DNA from: Verrucomicrobiota bacterium
GTDB taxonomy: Bacteria; Verrucomicrobiota; Verrucomicrobiia; Limisphaerales; UBA11358
Direction: 5' to 3'
NCBI GenBank assembly: GCA_050010675.1
Contig: JBEKKN010000004.1
Coordinates: 172-64,171, forward strand
Length of the DNA stretch: 64,000 nucleotides
Part shown: piece after piece, positions 4,700 through 63,933 of the stretch
Layout: every line of letters starts with the position of its first letter
How positions within the stretch are numbered: position 1 is the stretch's first letter
Program-made: the position numbers and the translations under genes
The notes under the pieces: model-generated
The model's database searches: none
Told to the model about the DNA's origin: nothing
The model's input: the letters and a program-made list of their open reading frames with translations, nothing else

Positions 4700-4782
4700 G
4701 ATTTACGATTTTGGATTTACGATTTCTCCCGCGCTTGAAGACCTGAAGGACGCGCGCCAATCGTATATCGCAAATCGTAAAT
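4700..4782. repeat. imperfect inverted repeat built from 7-nt 'words' (GATTTAC GATTTTG GATTTAC GATTT ... AATCGTA TATCGCA AATCGTA AAT)
   Basis: The left arm at 4701-4725 is roughly 80% complementary to the right arm at 4759-4782. It lies between the rpoD stop and the next start codon and may act as a terminator. Confidence 0.6.
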
Positions 4783-4785
4783 GTG

Positions 4786-5466
4786 ATGAAAGTCATTTAC
4801 TACGGTCATTCCTGCTTCTCGGTCACAGCTGGCGGCAAGCGCCTGCTGTTTGACCCCTTCATTTCCGGCAATCCCCTGGCAAAAGACATTGACGTGAAGT
4901 CGGTGCCGGCGGATTTCATCCTCGTCTCCCACGGACACGATGACCACATTGGCGACACGGTGGAAATTGCCAAACGCACCGGCGCGCTCGTCATCGCCAA
5001 TTTTGAAGTCGCCCTGTGGCTGGAAAAACAAGGGGCGCCCCGCGTTCATCCGCTGAACCACGGCGGCGGTCACCCCTTCGACTTCGGCCGCGCCAAATTC
5101 GTCAATGCCATTCACTCCAGCACCCTGCCCGATGGCACCAATGGCGGCAATGCCGGCGGCTTCGTGGTCGAGAGCACGGATGGGAATTTCTATTTCTCCG
5201 GTGATACCGCCCTGACGCTGGACATGAAGCTGATTGGCGAAGCCACGCCGCTGAAATTTGCCGCGCTGTGCATCGGCGACAACTTCACGATGGGACTGGA
5301 CGATGCCGTCAAGGCCGCCGACTTTGTCCGCAGCCGGGAAATCCTCGGTGTTCACTACGACACCTTTCCGCCGATCAAGATTGATCACGAACTCGCCGTG
5401 AAGAAATTTGCCGCTTCAGGAAAGACGCTGCACCTTCTGCAACCCGGCGAGACGCACGATTTCTAG
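4786..5466 (+). CDS. metal-dependent hydrolase, beta-lactamase fold (UPF0173-like)
   Basis: MKVIYYGHSCF..., ...ILVSHGHDDHIGD (an HxHxDH-type metal motif) and ...FSGDTAL... are present. Confidence 0.8.
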   Translation: MKVIYYGHSCFSVTAGGKRLLFDPFISGNPLAKDIDVKSVPADFILVSHGHDDHIGDTVEIAKRTGALVIANFEVALWLEKQGAPRVHPLNHGGGHPFDFGRAKFVNAIHSSTLPDGTNGGNAGGFVVESTDGNFYFSGDTALTLDMKLIGEATPLKFAALCIGDNFTMGLDDAVKAADFVRSREILGVHYDTFPPIKIDHELAVKKFAASGKTLHLLQPGETHDF

Positions 5467-22540: not shown

Positions 22541-22939
22541 ATGGCTGATGGTTGCGGCGTGCTCGTCCGTTTCGGCAAGATTTTTGTGATTGTGGCGCTC
22601 ATCACGACCACCGGCGCGCATTGGGCCGCGCTGCAATCGGTGGCGTGGACGACGATGCTCGCGGACAATTTGCGCACGCACTCGCTTTCCGAATCCGTGT
22701 CCCGCACGTTTGACGGCAATTATCCCTGTCCGATCTGCCGGGCCATCGCCGCGGCCAAGCAGTCCGAAAAGAAGAGCGAATTCACGGCCCAAACGCAGAA
22801 GCTTGAATTTACACCGGCCCAGGAAAACTTCGTGCCGATTGCCCCGTCGCATTTTCAACTTTTGCCGGTCGCCAATGCCTTCGCGGAATCGCTCAGCCAA
22901 CCACCACGGACCCCTCCACCGCGCAGTTTCTTCGTCTAA
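22541..22939 (+). CDS. small membrane-anchored hypothetical protein with HW...LQ..AW and CPxC motifs
   Basis: One N-terminal TM helix (IFVIVALITTTGAHWAALQSVAWTTML) is followed by ...NYPCPICRAIAAAK... It is the first gene of the putative copper cluster. Confidence 0.55.
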   Translation: MADGCGVLVRFGKIFVIVALITTTGAHWAALQSVAWTTMLADNLRTHSLSESVSRTFDGNYPCPICRAIAAAKQSEKKSEFTAQTQKLEFTPAQENFVPIAPSHFQLLPVANAFAESLSQPPRTPPPRSFFV

Positions 22940-22953
22940 TTCGTTTTGATAAC

Positions 22954-22978
22954 GGGAGGGACGGCGTGTCGCCGTCCC
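22954..22978. repeat. GC-rich palindromic repeat unit GGGAGGGACGGCGTGTCGCCGTCCC (family 'GRDG'); possible terminator hairpin
   Basis: The 9-bp stem GGGACGGCG/CGCCGTCCC has loop TGT and lies 15 nt after the stop of 22541..22939. Related copies are at 30194, 30248, 33137, 33177, 63879 and 63907. Confidence 0.7.
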
Positions 22979-24032: not shown

Positions 24033-24077
24033 TTCCCATCCCCACCCAAAAACAAAAACCAACAACCAAAAGGAACT

Positions 24078-29673: not shown

Positions 29674-29701
29674 AGCCAAACCGGCCCGCGGGGCCGGGTC
29701 C

Positions 29702-31165
29702 GTGGTCTGGCTTCGTTCTTTTTTGACGCTGAACATTTTGGGGCTTACTGTCTTCGGCGTGGACGCTGTCTCTTCCAATGAAAAATCCCTGGCGGACGCC
29801 GCGCATTTTGTTCGTGGGCAAATTCCGGGTGGCGGCCTTTTTGCGGGACTGGACTGGCGGATTTCGCCGGAGCCGTTTCCGCTCGGGGAAAATCTGGCGC
29901 GGGAAATTGAATCGCTGGGCCGTGTGCTGTTGCAATTTTATCGCGCGGTCAACCTGCTCTACCGGCGCAGCGTGGAAGGCAGACAACCGGCGTGGATTGC
30001 CGAACTGCTGGACCAGGGCAAACCTGCCGGTTTGATTGAGCTTCAGCGTTCGCCCGCGTTCAAGAGCGAGGTGCCGCGCGTGATTCGGCCGGACATTTTG
30101 TTGACCGAATCCGGTTTTAGCATCACCGAACTCGATTCCGTGCCCGGGGGCATCGGCCTGACGGCGTGGTTGGGGCAGACGTATTCCAACCTTGGGAGGG
30201 ACGGCATGTCGCCGTCCCAAACTTCGGAAACACCAACAGACAAATTAGGGACAGCGACACGCCGTCCCTCCCAGGAATTAATCGGCACCGCGGACGGAAT
30301 GGTGCGCGGGTTTGAAAGCATCTTCGGCGACGCCAAACAGGTTCACATCATTGTGTCCGAGGAAGCCGCGACCTACCGGCCGGAAATGGAATGGATCTCG
30401 AAGGAAGTGCGAAGTGCGAAGTGCGAAGTGCGCAGCGCGGAATTCACAGATTTCGCCGAGGGCGATGCGGTTTACCGCTTCTTCGAGCTGTTCGACCTGG
30501 CCAACGTGCCGGATTCGAAAAGGATTTTTGGACTGGCGGCTGAAAAACGGATCCGGCTGACACCACCGCCGAAACCCCTGTTTGAGGAAAAGCTGCTGTT
30601 CGCGCTGTTGTGGAACCGGAATTTGCGCGACTTTTGGCGCGGAGAACTGGGCGAGAGCTTTCTGGCACGCCTGCAAAAAGTGATTCCTTACACGTGGGCG
30701 GTGGATCCGACCCCGCTGCCGCCGCACGCGGCGATACCCGAATTGAACCTCACCGACTGGCAGCAGCTCAAAACGCTGTCGCAACGCCAACGCGAATTGA
30801 TTTTGAAGGTGTCCGGTTTTTCCGAACACGCCTGGGGCGCACGCGGCGTTTATCTCGGCAGCGACCTGTCGCACGCGGACTGGAGCGCGGCGGTGGACCG
30901 GGCCCTCGCGAGCTTCCCGACCTCGCCCTTCGTCCTGCAACGCTATGAGAAACCGAAAACCGTCGAGGCACAGTGGTACGATTTCGAAAAGAACGCCGTC
31001 GTGCCGATGAAGGGGCGGGTCCGTTTGTGCCCGTATTATTTCGTTGCCGGTGAAGGGGATGCGGCGCGCCCGCAATTGGGCGGAGTGCTGGCAACCATTG
31101 TTCCCGCCGATAAAAAAATTGTTCACGGCATGAGCGACGCGATTCTTGCACCGTGCGCGGTCTAG
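29702..31165 (+). CDS. uncharacterised ATP-grasp-like protein carrying an in-frame palindromic insert and a heptamer repeat tract
   Basis: A continuous 487-codon ORF. ...RVIRPDILLTESGFSITELDSVPGG... and the C-terminal ...LILKVSGFSEHAWGARGVYLG...FVLQRY...GRVRLCPYYF...GGVLATIVP...HGMSDAILAPC have ATP-grasp-like logic. The family is not identified and the start is uncertain. Confidence 0.55.
   Translation: MVWLRSFLTLNILGLTVFGVDAVSSNEKSLADAAHFVRGQIPGGGLFAGLDWRISPEPFPLGENLAREIESLGRVLLQFYRAVNLLYRRSVEGRQPAWIAELLDQGKPAGLIELQRSPAFKSEVPRVIRPDILLTESGFSITELDSVPGGIGLTAWLGQTYSNLGRDGMSPSQTSETPTDKLGTATRRPSQELIGTADGMVRGFESIFGDAKQVHIIVSEEAATYRPEMEWISKEVRSAKCEVRSAEFTDFAEGDAVYRFFELFDLANVPDSKRIFGLAAEKRIRLTPPPKPLFEEKLLFALLWNRNLRDFWRGELGESFLARLQKVIPYTWAVDPTPLPPHAAIPELNLTDWQQLKTLSQRQRELILKVSGFSEHAWGARGVYLGSDLSHADWSAAVDRALASFPTSPFVLQRYEKPKTVEAQWYDFEKNAVVPMKGRVRLCPYYFVAGEGDAARPQLGGVLATIVPADKKIVHGMSDAILAPCAV
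30193..30273. repeat. 81-nt inverted pair of 'GRDG' palindromic units inside the CDS 29702..31165
   Basis: The left unit is TGGGAGGGACGGCATGTCGCCGTCCC (30193-30218). The right unit is GGGACAGCGACACGCCGTCCCTCCCA (30248-30273). They are reverse complements apart from 2 mismatches. The length is 27 codons exactly. Confidence 0.8.
30404..30438. repeat. tandem heptanucleotide repeat (GAAGTGC)x4 plus one degenerate unit GCAGCGC, inside a CDS
   Basis: Read directly from the sequence: 30404-30431 is four perfect GAAGTGC units. It is translated as EVRSAKCEVRSA. Confidence 0.9.
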
Positions 31166-32144: not shown

Positions 32145-32219
32145 GCCAGTTTAGCTCAGTGGTAGAGCAACGGTTTTGTAAACCGTCGGTCGTCGGTTCA
32201 AATCCGACAACTGGCTCCA
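32145..32219 (+). tRNA. tRNA-Thr (anticodon UGU), CCA encoded
   Basis: A manual cloverleaf fits: acceptor GCCAGTT/AACTGGC, D stem GCTC/GAGC, anticodon stem ACGGT/ACCGT with loop TT-TGT-AA, and T stem GTCGG/CCGAC with loop TTCAAAT. Confidence 0.9.
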
Positions 32220-32285
32220 GTCTTCCTTGAGCTTGTCATTGCGCCGTTGGCCAAATTCGGAAACACTTCATTCGGAAGGAATTTC

Positions 32286-33647
32286 ATGCCCCGCAAAACG
32301 TCAATACGGCCAAATTCAGCGGCGTCGGTGATGATTCTCGGCGTCGGCTCGTTCGCGCACAGCCTCGGACGCACGCTGGCCGATGCCGGCATGACCGTCT
32401 CCACCTACCTCACCCGCAATTATGGACATTTCCCACCGTCACTCGTCGGACCGACCTTTTCGCGCGACGCATTTCCCAGCCCCATCCCGCTCATCAGGAA
32501 AAACGAAATCGACGTCGTCATTCCGCAATCCATCGACTGGGCGCTCGCGCCGTGGGCGAAGGATTTGATGAAATCCGGTGTCGGGATCTTCAGCCCCACG
32601 CGCGAGGCGATGCGCATCGAGCGGGAACGGGATTTCGCCCGTAAACTCTGCGCCGACTTCAAGATTCCGTTTCCGCAGGCTTACGTGGCCTCAAACCGGC
32701 TCGAAGCTGAAAAAATCCTGGCGGACCATCCGCAGCCGTTCGTCATCAAAAACCCGCTCTGCTCGCCCACCAGTCCGATTCACACGATTTTGTGCGAAAC
32801 CGTCGAGGACACGCGCGCCTGGCTGCGGCACGTCAATTATGCCGAAGGCGTCTTTTTACAGGAATACCTTGGGCGCGCCGAGGCCGGGCACATTGCACTA
32901 GTGAGTGGCGGGGAGATTTATTCCCTCGTCACCAATCAGGAATACAAATACGCCTTCAACGGCAATCAGGGCATTGTCGCCGGCGCGCCGCTCGGCGGCC
33001 TGGTCGAGCGCGATCCGGACGACCAATACGGCCTGGCGCGCGGGCTAATTCACCCGCTGTTGCCCTGGCTGCGCAAAGTTAAATACCACGGTCCGATCCA
33101 GGTAACGGCCGTTAAAACAGGGCGGGCTTCCCACCCGGGAGCGCCGGCGTCTCGCCGGCGTGTTGCCGAAAAACCGGCCGGCGGGACGCCGGCGCTCCCA
33201 GGGCAATGGCACGTCATCGAATACAACATCCGCATCGGCGTCACGTCCGGCCCGATGATTTTGCGGATGCTGAAAAATCCGGTGGAAACTGTTTTGCGAA
33301 CCACGCGAAATGAAAAACTTGACCCGCAATTCAAGCCCGGACTGAATTTCGGCTGCTCCCTGACCCTGGCCGGCTACGGCTATCCGTTCACGCAGGTCCG
33401 CAGCCCGCATCTGCCGCTGGAGGTGGACGGTCCGTTCGATTGCGATGTGTGGTGGAATGAAGTGGCCCGCGGCACGGATGGCAAACTGGTTTCCACGGGC
33501 CACCGCATTGCCGATGTGATTGCACTCGCGCCAATGCTGGACGCCGCCATTTCCAAAGCTTACGCGAACATCCGCAAAATCCGCGTCGTGGGCAGCTATT
33601 TCCGCACGGACATCGGCCAAAGCCTGTGGCCGCCGGGTACCGTTTAA
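32286..33647 (+). CDS. PurD-like ATP-grasp protein (function uncertain) with an in-frame palindromic insert
   Basis: The Rossmann-like N-terminus is VMILGVGSFAHSLG. The ATP-grasp core reads ...PFVIKNPLCSP...GVFLQEYL...HVIEYNIRIG.... It diverges from canonical PurD. The ATG at 32286 is preferred because the ORF start at 32247 is only 28 nt from the tRNA. Confidence 0.6.
   Translation: MPRKTSIRPNSAASVMILGVGSFAHSLGRTLADAGMTVSTYLTRNYGHFPPSLVGPTFSRDAFPSPIPLIRKNEIDVVIPQSIDWALAPWAKDLMKSGVGIFSPTREAMRIERERDFARKLCADFKIPFPQAYVASNRLEAEKILADHPQPFVIKNPLCSPTSPIHTILCETVEDTRAWLRHVNYAEGVFLQEYLGRAEAGHIALVSGGEIYSLVTNQEYKYAFNGNQGIVAGAPLGGLVERDPDDQYGLARGLIHPLLPWLRKVKYHGPIQVTAVKTGRASHPGAPASRRRVAEKPAGGTPALPGQWHVIEYNIRIGVTSGPMILRMLKNPVETVLRTTRNEKLDPQFKPGLNFGCSLTLAGYGYPFTQVRSPHLPLEVDGPFDCDVWWNEVARGTDGKLVSTGHRIADVIALAPMLDAAISKAYANIRKIRVVGSYFRTDIGQSLWPPGTV
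33137..33199. repeat. 63-nt inverted pair of 'GRDG'-family units inside the CDS 32286..33647
   Basis: The left unit is GGGAGCGCCGGCGTCTCGCCGGC (33137-33159) and the right unit is GCCGGCGGGACGCCGGCGCTCCC (33177-33199). They are reverse complements with 1 mismatch. The length is 21 codons exactly. Confidence 0.8.
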
Positions 33648-62763: not shown

Positions 62764-62826
62764 CCCGGATTGCGGGAAAACGAAAACGTTCTTCCGCCGG
62801 AACTTTCGCGCGGGTATGCTGCGAAC

Positions 62827-63873
62827 GTGAAAGCCGCCATCCTTCACGGTCGGGAACACCTTCAAATCGAGGACATCGCTCCCCCATCGCTGAAAACCGG
62901 TGAAGTCCGTGTCCGCATCGAGGCGGCGCTCACCTGCGGCACCGACCTGAAGGTTTACAAACGCGGTTATCACGCCAAAATGATTGTGCCGCCCGCCGCG
63001 TTTGGGCATGAACTGGCTGGTGTCATTTGCGAAGTTCAAAGCCCAAAACCCAGGTCCCCGGGCTGGGACTGGAAAATCGGCGATCGCGTCGTAGCAGCCA
63101 ATTCCGCGCCTTGTGGCGGTTGTTTTCACTGCTGTGAAGGCCAGGAAAATCTCTGCGAACAGTTGTTGTTCCTGAACGGCACCTACGCCGAATCCATCGT
63201 CATCCCGGCACGGCTCGTCCAGCAGAACCTGTTGCGGCTCAAACCGGAAACCGGTTTCCGCGACGCCGCCCTCGTTGAACCGGTGGCTTGCGTCGTCCAG
63301 GGGGTGAATGACACGAAACTGCGCGCCGGGCAAAATGTGCTGGTCATCGGCGCCGGGCCCATTGGCTTGATGTTTGTCGCGCTCTCAAAAAATCTTGGCT
63401 GCCACGTCACCATGGCCGGGCGGCGCGCGGCGCGATTGGCAGCCGCACAACGGCTGGGCGCGGAGCGGGTCATTGACATTGGCGACGGCCACGCATTGGC
63501 CGCCAAAATCCGGGGTGCGGCCCCGACGCGTTTCGATGCCGTGATTGAAGCGGTCGGCAAACCGGAAACGTGGGAGGCCGCTGGGCAACTCGTGCGCAAG
63601 GGCGGCACGGTGAATTTTTTCGGCGGCTGCCCGGCCGGCTCCAAAGTGTCATTCCACACGGAATTGATTCATTATTCCAATCTCACCCTCCTGGCGAGTT
63701 TTCATCACACGCCGCGGACCATCCGGCGCGCCCTGGAATTGATCGAAGCCGGCGTGGTCCGCGCGCGGGATTTTGTGGACGGCGAATGCCCGTTGAGCCA
63801 ATTGCCGGAACTGTTCAAGACCATGGCAGCAGGCAATCACGCCATCAAGACCTTGATCCGGGTGCACGAATAA
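62827..63873 (+). CDS. zinc-dependent medium-chain alcohol/polyol dehydrogenase family
   Basis: ...LTCGTDLKVYKRGYH... and ...GHELAGV... (catalytic Zn) are present. ...CGGCFHCCEGQENLC... is the structural Zn motif and ...VLVIGAGPIG... the Rossmann motif. The GTG at 62827 is preferred; the ORF opens at 62770. Confidence 0.85.
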   Translation: MKAAILHGREHLQIEDIAPPSLKTGEVRVRIEAALTCGTDLKVYKRGYHAKMIVPPAAFGHELAGVICEVQSPKPRSPGWDWKIGDRVVAANSAPCGGCFHCCEGQENLCEQLLFLNGTYAESIVIPARLVQQNLLRLKPETGFRDAALVEPVACVVQGVNDTKLRAGQNVLVIGAGPIGLMFVALSKNLGCHVTMAGRRAARLAAAQRLGAERVIDIGDGHALAAKIRGAAPTRFDAVIEAVGKPETWEAAGQLVRKGGTVNFFGGCPAGSKVSFHTELIHYSNLTLLASFHHTPRTIRRALELIEAGVVRARDFVDGECPLSQLPELFKTMAAGNHAIKTLIRVHE

Positions 63874-63878
63874 ATCGT

Positions 63879-63929
63879 GAGGGAAGGCCTGTCGCCGCCC
63901 CGAAACGGGCCGCTGACACGCGACGCTCC
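63879..63929. repeat. degenerate inverted pair of the 'GRDG' palindromic family
   Basis: The left unit GAGGGAAGGCCTGTCGCCGCCCC (63879-63901) matches the family core at about 19 of 22 positions. The right unit GGGCCGCTGACACGCGACGCTCC (63907-63929) is a weaker inverted copy. It lies between two convergent genes. Confidence 0.5.
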
Positions 63930-63933
63930 GGCA

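Follow-up and report, generated by a model that had tools for sequence, protein, structure and literature searches.

We have found that positions 30193-30273 of a 64,000-nucleotide (64-kb) stretch of DNA from a Verrucomicrobiota bacterium of the order Limisphaerales (contig JBEKKN010000004.1; the whole stretch is referred to here as the window) hold a head-to-head doublet of repetitive extragenic palindromic (REP) units, and that this doublet lies inside the open reading frame (ORF) of a predicted glutathione-synthetase-like ligase. We consider it very likely, at a probability of roughly 0.85, that the block is a REPIN (a pair of REPs that folds into a hairpin) of a REP-associated tyrosine transposase (RAYT) system, that it inserted in frame, that its translation gives the protein an additional loop of about 25 residues, and that it has been retained under constraint. 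REPINs are non-autonomous and are mobilised in trans by RAYTs, tyrosine transposases of the HUH/Y1 type that act on hairpins in single-stranded DNA (ssDNA). We envisage that a REPIN copy landed in a loop-coding position of the ligase gene in the ancestor of a group of uncultured Limisphaerales, and that the gene would have been left intact because the REP core is free of stop codons in all six frames and the net length added is a multiple of three. The element would then have been translated as an extra loop of some 25 residues between two helices (residues 151-164 and 199-206) and later inherited vertically under constraint, and in other lineages heptamer arrays or other REPIN families may have taken its place at that junction.

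The palindromic block, its family and the associated transposase

The earlier note on this DNA, made from the letters alone, had described two near-reverse-complementary 26-nt units 29 nt apart, and reading the sequence bears this out. The first unit, TGGGAGGGACGGCATGTCGCCGTCCC, occupies 30193-30218 and the second, GGGACAGCGACACGCCGTCCCTCCCA, occupies 30248-30273, with 29 nt between them (30219-30247); the second, once reverse-complemented, matches the first at all but 2 of 26 positions. A repeat search gives the block arms of 32 nt that are 88% complementary and ranks it first among the inverted repeats of the whole 64-kb window. Each arm is also a hairpin of its own, with an 8-bp stem (GGGACGGC/GCCGTCCC) and a 5-nt loop. 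The 97-nt region around the block folds at -28 kcal/mol as ssDNA (z = -7.8) and at -53.6 kcal/mol as RNA (z = -9.7), values equalled in neither case by any of 200 shuffles. The parts of the block, its host gene and the other copies of the unit in the window are these:

29702..31165, plus strand: host gene, a 487-aa ORF, taken from the ORF list and its predicted fold to be a glutathione-synthetase-like (circularly permuted ATP-grasp) ligase
30193..30273, plus strand: REPIN, a head-to-head doublet of two REP hairpins and a spacer, whose in-frame translation is (L)GRDGMSPSQTSETPTDKLGTATRRPS(Q)
30194..30218, plus strand: left REP unit, GGGAGGGACGGCATGTCGCCGTCCC, 1 mismatch to the family consensus; stem 30198-30205 / 30211-30218, loop ATGTC
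30219..30247, plus strand: locus-specific spacer of 29 nt, encoding ...QTSETPTDKL... and starting with the family's usual AAACTT tail
30248..30272, minus strand: right REP unit, inverted, read on the minus strand as GGGAGGGACGGCGTGTCGCTGTCCC, 1 mismatch to the consensus
22954..22978 (pattern at 22958-22978), plus strand: singlet REP, perfect consensus, intergenic, 15 nt past the stop of ORF 22541..22939
63877..63930 (pattern at 63881-63901), plus strand: degenerate REP (4/25 mismatches) with a decayed partner, directly after the stop of ORF 62770..63873

The 25-nt unit is a genuine REP. Its pattern is matched five times in the 64-kb window against 0.00 matches expected, and both further copies that the earlier note had picked out, the intergenic one at 22954-22978 (which is perfect) and the degenerate one, were recovered. 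The intergenic site orthologous to 22954..22978 carries a full doublet in one related genome (L003) and a singlet in another (L032). A metagenome scan with the exact 25-nt pattern GGGAGGGAYGGCRTGTCGCCGTCCC matched at least 120 contigs from many species, and the counts of units, doublets, RAYT genes and intragenic copies that follow are all drawn from the matches listed in that scan. These contigs hold at least 216 units at five or fewer mismatches, with 62 head-to-head doublets (mostly 56-72 nt), 86 singlets and 3 same-orientation pairs. The family consensus is [TC][TC]GGGAGGGACGGCGTGTCGCCGTCCC followed by an A/T-rich, AAATTT-like tail; the 8-bp stem, closed by a 5-nt loop, begins with G-C pairs and is preceded by [TC][TC]GG-GAGG. 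Three of its eight pairs show two-sided, pair-preserving change with few non-pairs, namely 7-21 (A-T 155, T-A 29), 10-18 (G-C 155, C-G 40) and 9-19 (G-C 184, A-T 9). No target-site duplication flanks the window copy, and around the 62 doublets direct repeats of 3-6 nt at offsets of 0-4 occur at chance level, which is what is expected for Y1 enzymes of the IS200/IS605 type. The insertion sites show no shared target motif beyond Y-Y / R-R positions adjoining the units. When the hairpins were compared with Rfam we obtained no ribozyme or intron; the microRNA-precursor models that did appear were sub-threshold, and we dropped that identity as a generic hairpin hit.

The family is associated with a transposase gene. 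In five contigs (L087, L093, L120, L196 and L134) an ORF of 158 aa is bracketed by two inverted consensus units; in L087, for example, a REP at 1687-1711 is followed by the ATG at 1724, the stop at 2198-2200 and an inverted REP at 2205-2229. By tblastn the ORF occurs in 10 contigs, with a unit adjoining it in 9. It matches the NCBIfam family NF047646, 'REP-associated tyrosine transposase', at E = 3e-21, and a profile of the ten copies has E. coli TnpArep (4ER8) as its sole match in the PDB (E = 9e-9), and in this match the HxH and Y-x-x-NPV motifs line up. What the earlier note had called a GC-rich REP-type element is indeed a dispersed REP with a cognate RAYT in related contigs, and it is by such an enzyme that the window copy would have been mobilised.

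We also note two features of the RAYT loci themselves. At 7450-7567 of contig L188 the flanks are those of the RAYT loci of L196 and L120 (...AAGTTTTTCATTCAATT on one side and TGGGAGGG... on the other), with REP units only and no RAYT gene between them; this may be a RAYT-less allele of the REPtron locus. A 6-phosphogluconolactonase-like gene adjoins the RAYT in most of L134, L151, L087, L093, L141 and L083, and in six contigs this gene has an in-frame singlet REP (..KI-GDGDTPSLP-ANVHFFWADERC..) within its Glucosamine_iso domain (2958-2982 in L134).

The host gene and the encoded loop

The host protein has thousands of homologues, the close ones in metagenome-assembled genomes (MAGs) of Verrucomicrobia/Limisphaerales (1,234 cluster representatives in an exhaustive HMMER search), and many of the matches are split in two stretches exactly at the insert. 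The earlier note had raised the possibility that ORF 29702..31165 is really two genes with the block as a spacer between them. We rejected this, as insert-free homologues cover both halves of the ORF as single proteins of 420-470 aa and an AlphaFold (AF2) model of the host protein, built on an alignment of 83 diverse homologues, is one compact fold, with a predicted local distance difference test score (pLDDT) of 91.7 and a predicted template-modelling score (pTM) of 0.90. A shallower alignment of 23 close orthologues gave a pLDDT of 39.8, and that model was not used. Confidence is low only in residues 1-25 (pLDDT below 50) and in the insert (approximately residues 165-192, pLDDT 62-77; 77, 62 and 72 by 10-residue block), which sits between the helices of residues 151-164 and 199-206.

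Searches with the host protein against Pfam and NCBIfam, with or without the insert, returned no family, and a sequence-profile search of the PDB returned no match. Foldseek places eukaryotic-type glutathione synthetases (8fbz/2hgs/5oes) at the top of its PDB matches to the model (E = 2e-13, TM-score 0.62-0.66) and also finds the glutathionylspermidine-synthase-like (GspS-like) 3n6x, with TM-scores of 0.6-0.66 overall. The model therefore supports a product with a eukaryotic-type, glutathione-synthetase-like, circularly permuted ATP-grasp fold, and the description of the host as 'ATP-grasp-like' in the earlier note is sound because these fold matches belong to the circularly permuted ATP-grasp group. 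Residues 1-25 are modelled at a pLDDT of less than 50, and alignments with homologues start at about residue 25-34, so the nominal GTG probably lies some 20-30 codons upstream of the true start. A terminator-like hairpin with a T-run at 29688-29716, 3' of the neighbouring GH44 gene, overlaps that nominal start (29702).

The block is an insertion relative to the ancestral gene. A short loop, ...TYxxLG-xx-V[IL]GGxxGM..., almost always fills the site in 73 full-length homologues (34-65% identity), which show no conserved counterpart of the insert peptide, and we rejected an ancestral loop on that ground; the block is missing from homologues down to about 37% identity. A comparison of presence and absence among orthologues, as the earlier note had proposed, agrees with this: the minimal form, with 21 residues between the anchors, is found in 11 of 63 Limisphaerales orthologues parsed from 80 GTDB species genomes, and the window protein has 46 residues there. 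The net gain over insert-free homologues is accordingly 25 codons (75 nt). The earlier note had put the insertion at exactly 27 codons; 81 nt is a multiple of three, as is 75, but the block is out of codon register (30193 is the third base of a Leu codon) and the gain is not 27. It does lie, as claimed there, within the open frame 29702..31165, whose translation across it reads ...NLGRDGMSPSQTSETPTDKLGTATRRPSQE..., and a tryptic peptide of the insert would be DGMSPSQTSETPTDK.

The window gene and its orthologues in L001 and L002 align without gaps across the element and have the same locus-specific spacer (93% and 79% identical to the window copy, respectively), which points to a single old insertion inherited vertically. 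Over these three genomes the element is 88-90% identical at the DNA level, compared with 80-87% for the flanking gene, and identity at third codon positions is 81.5% in the insert versus 67-69% in the flanks, a difference that, with only 27 sites, is suggestive and not significant. In the 46 orthologues with the insert the mean pairwise identity of its peptide is 80.5%, against 85% for the rest of the protein, and the unpaired residues encoded by the spacer are likewise conserved. Judged from this conservation, the insert is kept under constraint and is therefore not evolving neutrally, and the enzyme would appear to tolerate the loop or to make use of it. Differences between the two arms are uncompensated from species to species, which argues against selection on the long hairpin itself.

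The host gene is not the only one to have received the element. The matches contain 154 elements, 18 of which are too near contig ends, leaving 136 that can be evaluated; the frame is open over ±50 codons in 62 of these and not in 74. By inspection and Pfam, about 30 of the 136 lie in frame within recognisable genes of at least 17 families: LeuRS, HisRS, MetH (activation domain), PrmC, a Mur-ligase/FolC-like protein, HrpB, OGG, RsmB, an ABC-F ATPase, CstA, a DUF255 thioredoxin-like protein, lactate permease, a glycogen-debranching enzyme (GDE), the 6-phosphogluconolactonase-like protein, an EgtD-like methyltransferase, a DNA methylase and a GH20 protein. The census of intergenic and intragenic copies that the earlier note had called for thus gives, for this metagenome sample, about a fifth of evaluable copies in frame within genes. 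All of these approximately 30 copies keep the frame and are free of stop codons, with frame preservation judged from intact downstream domains and the boundaries of the doublets relative to the target being ambiguous. The consensus, read directly, shows no stop codon in the REP core in any of the six frames, which encode, depending on frame and orientation, GRDGVSPS, WEGRRVAVP, GGTACRRP, GTATRRPS, DGDTPSLP or GRRHAVPP. Most copies among these matches appear to be extragenic, yet the intragenic share, in a sample sorted into crude classes and drawn from many species, is well over the 1.3% of Pseudomonas fluorescens SBW25 (PMC3116915).

We note that some of these genes have further inserts. Three PrmC orthologues (L145, L152 and L160) share at one site a REPIN of the window's type, designated type A. 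A second site is empty in L160 and is filled by an insert resembling type D in L145 and type C in L152. The DUF255 protein of L190 contains one type-C-like insert more than that of L118. Several REP families therefore invade the same genes.

Different inserts at one codon position, and other explanations

The lead that we find most interesting is a possible re-use of the site. At the codon position occupied by the window element, other orthologues of the host gene have unrelated near-perfect palindromes, heptamer arrays or nothing, and a similar variety of inserts is seen in PrmC and in a gene for a PurD-like ATP-grasp protein that lies two genes downstream of the host gene. The inserts concerned are as follows:

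Host-gene site in orthologues, type D: a GTAG-tagged REPIN
Host-gene site in orthologues, type C: GGAGGGCGG...
Host-gene site in orthologues, type G: GTGCTGCCGGCA...
33134..33202 of the window, plus strand: second in-frame REPIN, of another REP family (unit GGGAGCGCCGGCGTC[TC]CGCCGGC), inside the PurD-like ATP-grasp ORF 32247..33647; 26 codons more than in L003

Other inserts at the host-gene site include inverted or single heptamer arrays, and an inverted-heptamer hairpin is present there in L004, L015, L020 and L027. On the protein tree the insert types intermingle, and type A is also represented by deletion derivatives. Two close relatives with the same gene order as the window show this most clearly: L201, which diverges from the window by 6.3% over 7.4 kb, has type D, and L202, at 9.6% over 6.2 kb, has type C, and types A, D and C sit at identical junctions, with ...TAT[TG]CCAAC before the insert and TTAATCGGC... 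after it. We rejected the idea that type C is a reversed type A, as its DNA shows a different unit, GGAGGGCGGAGTTCCACGACGCCC; we also rejected a retained spacer common to types A and D, the AAACTTC tail being typical of type A copies in other genes. In the PurD-like gene, 33134-33202 is the second-best inverted repeat of the window and its unit is dispersed (18 hits from 10 sources); the site is empty in L003, and L001 and L201 each have a different insert.

This pattern may reflect a small number of permissive loops, insertion targeted to hairpins, precise excision and re-insertion, or recombination of old alleles. The last of these, in which the inserts are old alleles shuffled by short-tract homologous recombination and the hotspot is only apparent, is a tentative but real possibility, and it would refine the REPIN explanation without conflicting with it. 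It would account for insert types that are not monophyletic on the protein tree, for type A and type D alleles having the same junctions in genomes that range from approximately 70% to more than 90% protein identity, for residues just upstream of the site that co-vary with insert type, and for the stretch of 60 nt immediately upstream of the site in L201, which has 9 mismatches in a locus diverged by 6.3% overall. The neighbour-joining tree is not robustly resolved, however, the raised flank divergence is modest and one-sided, and one codon position must still have received at least six independent original insertions. We find it less probable, and indeed rather doubtful, that the loop-coding position is a reusable landing pad at which REPIN families and heptamer arrays are exchanged at the same junction, their peptides then coming under purifying selection. 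If this were true, it would imply precise excision and re-insertion of the RAYT type, or hairpin-targeted homing, inside coding sequence, and REPIN-RAYT would be a cassette mechanism for diversifying the surface loops of proteins, beyond tolerated junk.

The same observations could be taken to mean that the nucleic-acid hairpin itself is selected (for pausing, mRNA stability or operon-internal attenuation), that the peptide is a by-product and that any strong hairpin suffices. At least six unrelated near-perfect palindromes as well as inverted heptamer arrays occupy the same codon position, three different REPINs share identical junctions in close relatives, the neighbouring PurD-like gene shows the same pattern, and the fold is very stable. 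We nevertheless regard this reading as improbable: the insert is missing from the 11 minimal orthologues and from nearly all distant homologues, the heptamer arrays of many orthologues are single, non-inverted and of unremarkable folding energy, and the REP family also occurs in many unrelated genes and in intergenic DNA. The unpaired residues encoded by the spacer are, moreover, as conserved as those encoded by the stems, and both the codon-position pattern of substitutions and the uncompensated arm differences noted above tell against it.

Still more improbable is that the block goes untranslated, through translational bypassing or removal from the mRNA, to give a mature enzyme without the loop. 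An RNA hairpin of -54 kcal/mol within an ORF is an obstacle to ribosomes, but in all of the approximately 30 intragenic copies, which are spread over at least 17 gene families, the frame is kept and no stop codon occurs, a state that would be needless if they were skipped, and the insert combines third-position-biased change with amino-acid conservation. On reading the sequence we saw in the block no stop codon and no matched arrangement of take-off and landing codons, and Rfam finds in it no ribozyme or intron. Least probable of all is a miniature inverted-repeat transposable element (MITE) derived from a DDE transposase, with terminal inverted repeats and a target-site duplication, for although the arms could pass for the terminal inverted repeats of an 81-bp element and in-frame MITE insertion is known (PMC3733652), direct repeats around the 62 doublets are no commoner than by chance, the arms are hairpins in their own right with covarying stem pairs, singlets are common, and the sole transposase bracketed by the units is a Y1/HUH RAYT.

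Several points do weigh against a translated, RAYT-mobilised REPIN. We found by tblastn no RAYT gene in the 64-kb window or in 80 related genome loci, and the transposase link therefore rests on related metagenome contigs and not on the source genome. The 158-aa ORF has no Pfam hit, and its NF047646 score of 75.7 bits falls just below the curated cutoff of 80. The 5' tetranucleotide of the family is [TC][TC]GG (YYGG), not the GTAG typical of most RAYT-associated REPs; GTAG defines the GTAG super-family and not every RAYT-associated REP. The uncompensated differences between the arms suggest that this particular copy may no longer be mobile. Translation of the insert is argued from just two lines, frame preservation and conservation. 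Finally, the intragenic classification is crude: a codon log-odds classifier, which is a lower bound only, recovered 14 of the copies and missed PrmC, OGG and FolC, all confirmed by Pfam, the others having been assigned by eye and Pfam.

Relation to known palindromic repeats

The present family resembles known REPIN-RAYT systems, in which REP doublets form hairpins and are mobilised by RAYTs (PMC3116915; Nunvar et al. 2013, PMC3686654). It shares with them the 25-nt imperfect palindrome, pairs of inverted units that fold, together with their spacer, into one long hairpin, singlets with the look of decayed doublets, stems that vary by compensatory change, a RAYT gene between inverted REPs, the lack of a target-site duplication and long vertical persistence at orthologous sites. 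Its G-rich 5' part also resembles the Pseudomonas GI REP, GTGGGAGGGGGCTTGC (PMC3116915), and switches of REP class have been described at orthologous RAYT loci (Nunvar et al. 2013, PMC3686654). It differs in its 5' tetranucleotide ([TC][TC]GG as opposed to GTAG/GTGG, although the type D elements at the same site do carry GTAG) and in its host, an uncultured Limisphaerales lineage. The greatest difference is location: about 30 of 136 evaluable copies are in frame within genes, whereas in P. fluorescens SBW25 14 of 1,067 REP 16-mers overlap genes (Bertels & Rainey 2011, PMC3116915).

REP singlets and dimers wholly inside ORFs of known proteins have been reported before (Di Nocera, De Gregorio & Rocco 2013, PMC3733652). 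In that survey the counts of intragenic GTAG and CGTC REPs peak in Opitutus terrae (Verrucomicrobia) and Rickettsia conorii, intragenic dimers encode 20-30 amino acids, some genes have two inserts, targets include tRNA synthetases, helicases and repair genes, and in two Xanthomonas species recB has different REPs at roughly one and the same site (PMC3733652). Our family is alike in its in-ORF singlets and dimers, similar targets, double inserts and different REPs at one site; it is unlike in that it lacks the GTAG or CGTC tag with the typical stem and belongs to another verrucomicrobial order. CGTC REPs are defined by an unpaired terminal CGTC (TGTC/CCTC), an 8-9-bp stem opening with A-T pairs and a CCA-like tail (PMC3733652), whereas here the stem opens with G-C, a terminal CGTC is lacking and an A/T-rich AAATTT forms the tail. 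Because intragenic REPs have already been described, the present case is a new family, in a new lineage, of a phenomenon known from Rickettsia and from O. terrae. Three REPIN families at identical junctions in genomes that are 6-10% diverged, and conservation of the encoded peptide, are absent from that report (PMC3733652); these, together with the RAYT link of an in-frame family and the high intragenic share, appear to go beyond earlier accounts.

The earlier note had described the insertion as an invasion like that of the Rickettsia palindromic elements (RPEs). RPEs, as Ogata et al. 2000 is recounted in PMC3733652, are palindromic repeats in frame in protein genes that still function, to which they add a peptide; RPE-4 and RPE-6 have been equated with the CGTC super-family, which has no known dedicated transposase (PMC3733652). 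The comparison stands as an analogy in behaviour (in-frame palindromic insertion with a peptide added) but not as an identity of the element: this is a repeat of the REPIN/RAYT type, GC-rich, with a cognate RAYT and in free-living Verrucomicrobia, as opposed to an AT-rich, obligately intracellular alphaproteobacterium, and membership of the RPEs is implausible because of the host lineage. Bacterial MITEs in or near genes, such as Correia/NEMIS, ERIC and Nezha (PMC3733652, PMC10969869), are similarly short, non-autonomous, hairpin-forming, co-transcribed with genes and occasionally in frame; they differ in having terminal inverted repeats of DDE-type insertion sequences and a target-site duplication, where here we see none and the enzyme is a Y1 transposase.

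In-frame palindromic repeats are among the few documented routes from selfish DNA to new segments of bacterial proteins. The classic case, in Rickettsia, has no known transposase, and here an intragenic element is tied to a cognate RAYT, in a lineage of free-living, environmentally abundant Limisphaerales of peat and soil in which many essential genes, including those for aminoacyl-tRNA synthetases, MetH and PrmC, are affected. Filled, empty and replaced natural alleles at one site, together with a conserved loop, make the choice of targets by REPINs, and the neutrality or co-option of the loop, open to test. In practical terms, such inserts inflate variation in protein length, break profile matches and mimic errors of assembly or annotation in MAGs.

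We note some further features of the surrounding genes. Between 27385 and 33647 the window encodes a GH44 glycosidase, the glutathione-synthetase-like ATP-grasp ligase, a Transglut_core2 protein, a tRNA and the PurD-like ATP-grasp protein, an order kept in the close relatives L201 and L202; the presence of a transglutaminase-like protein alongside ATP-grasp ligases suggests some pathway that forms peptide or amide bonds. The tRNA gene (32145-32216; 75.8 bits to Rfam RF00005) separates the Transglut_core2 gene from the PurD-like ORF, and the nominal TTG start of the latter (32247) is therefore questionable; the PurD-like protein has 466 aa here, compared with 432 aa in the gene-caller prediction for the L201 orthologue.

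Lastly, heptamer arrays are also found elsewhere in the window. Inverted arrays, (GATTTAC)n ... (AATCGTA)n, form a hairpin at 4701-4782, just past the stop (4697) of an rpoD-like ORF and before ORF 4783..5466, and a CCAAAAA-type run of 3.9 copies lies at 24046-24071, just 5' of an ATG at approximately 24079. The host gene itself has a perfect array, (GAAGTGC)x4.1, at 30404-30432, read in frame as VRSAKCEVRSA. Most orthologues have at this site a perfect array of 27-36 nt with another unit (TTCAAAA, TTCAGAA, TTCGGAG, TTCAACA and others), and in L021 it reaches 58 nt, which is three units and 7 aa more. This pattern suggests concerted evolution by slippage or, possibly, phase variation.

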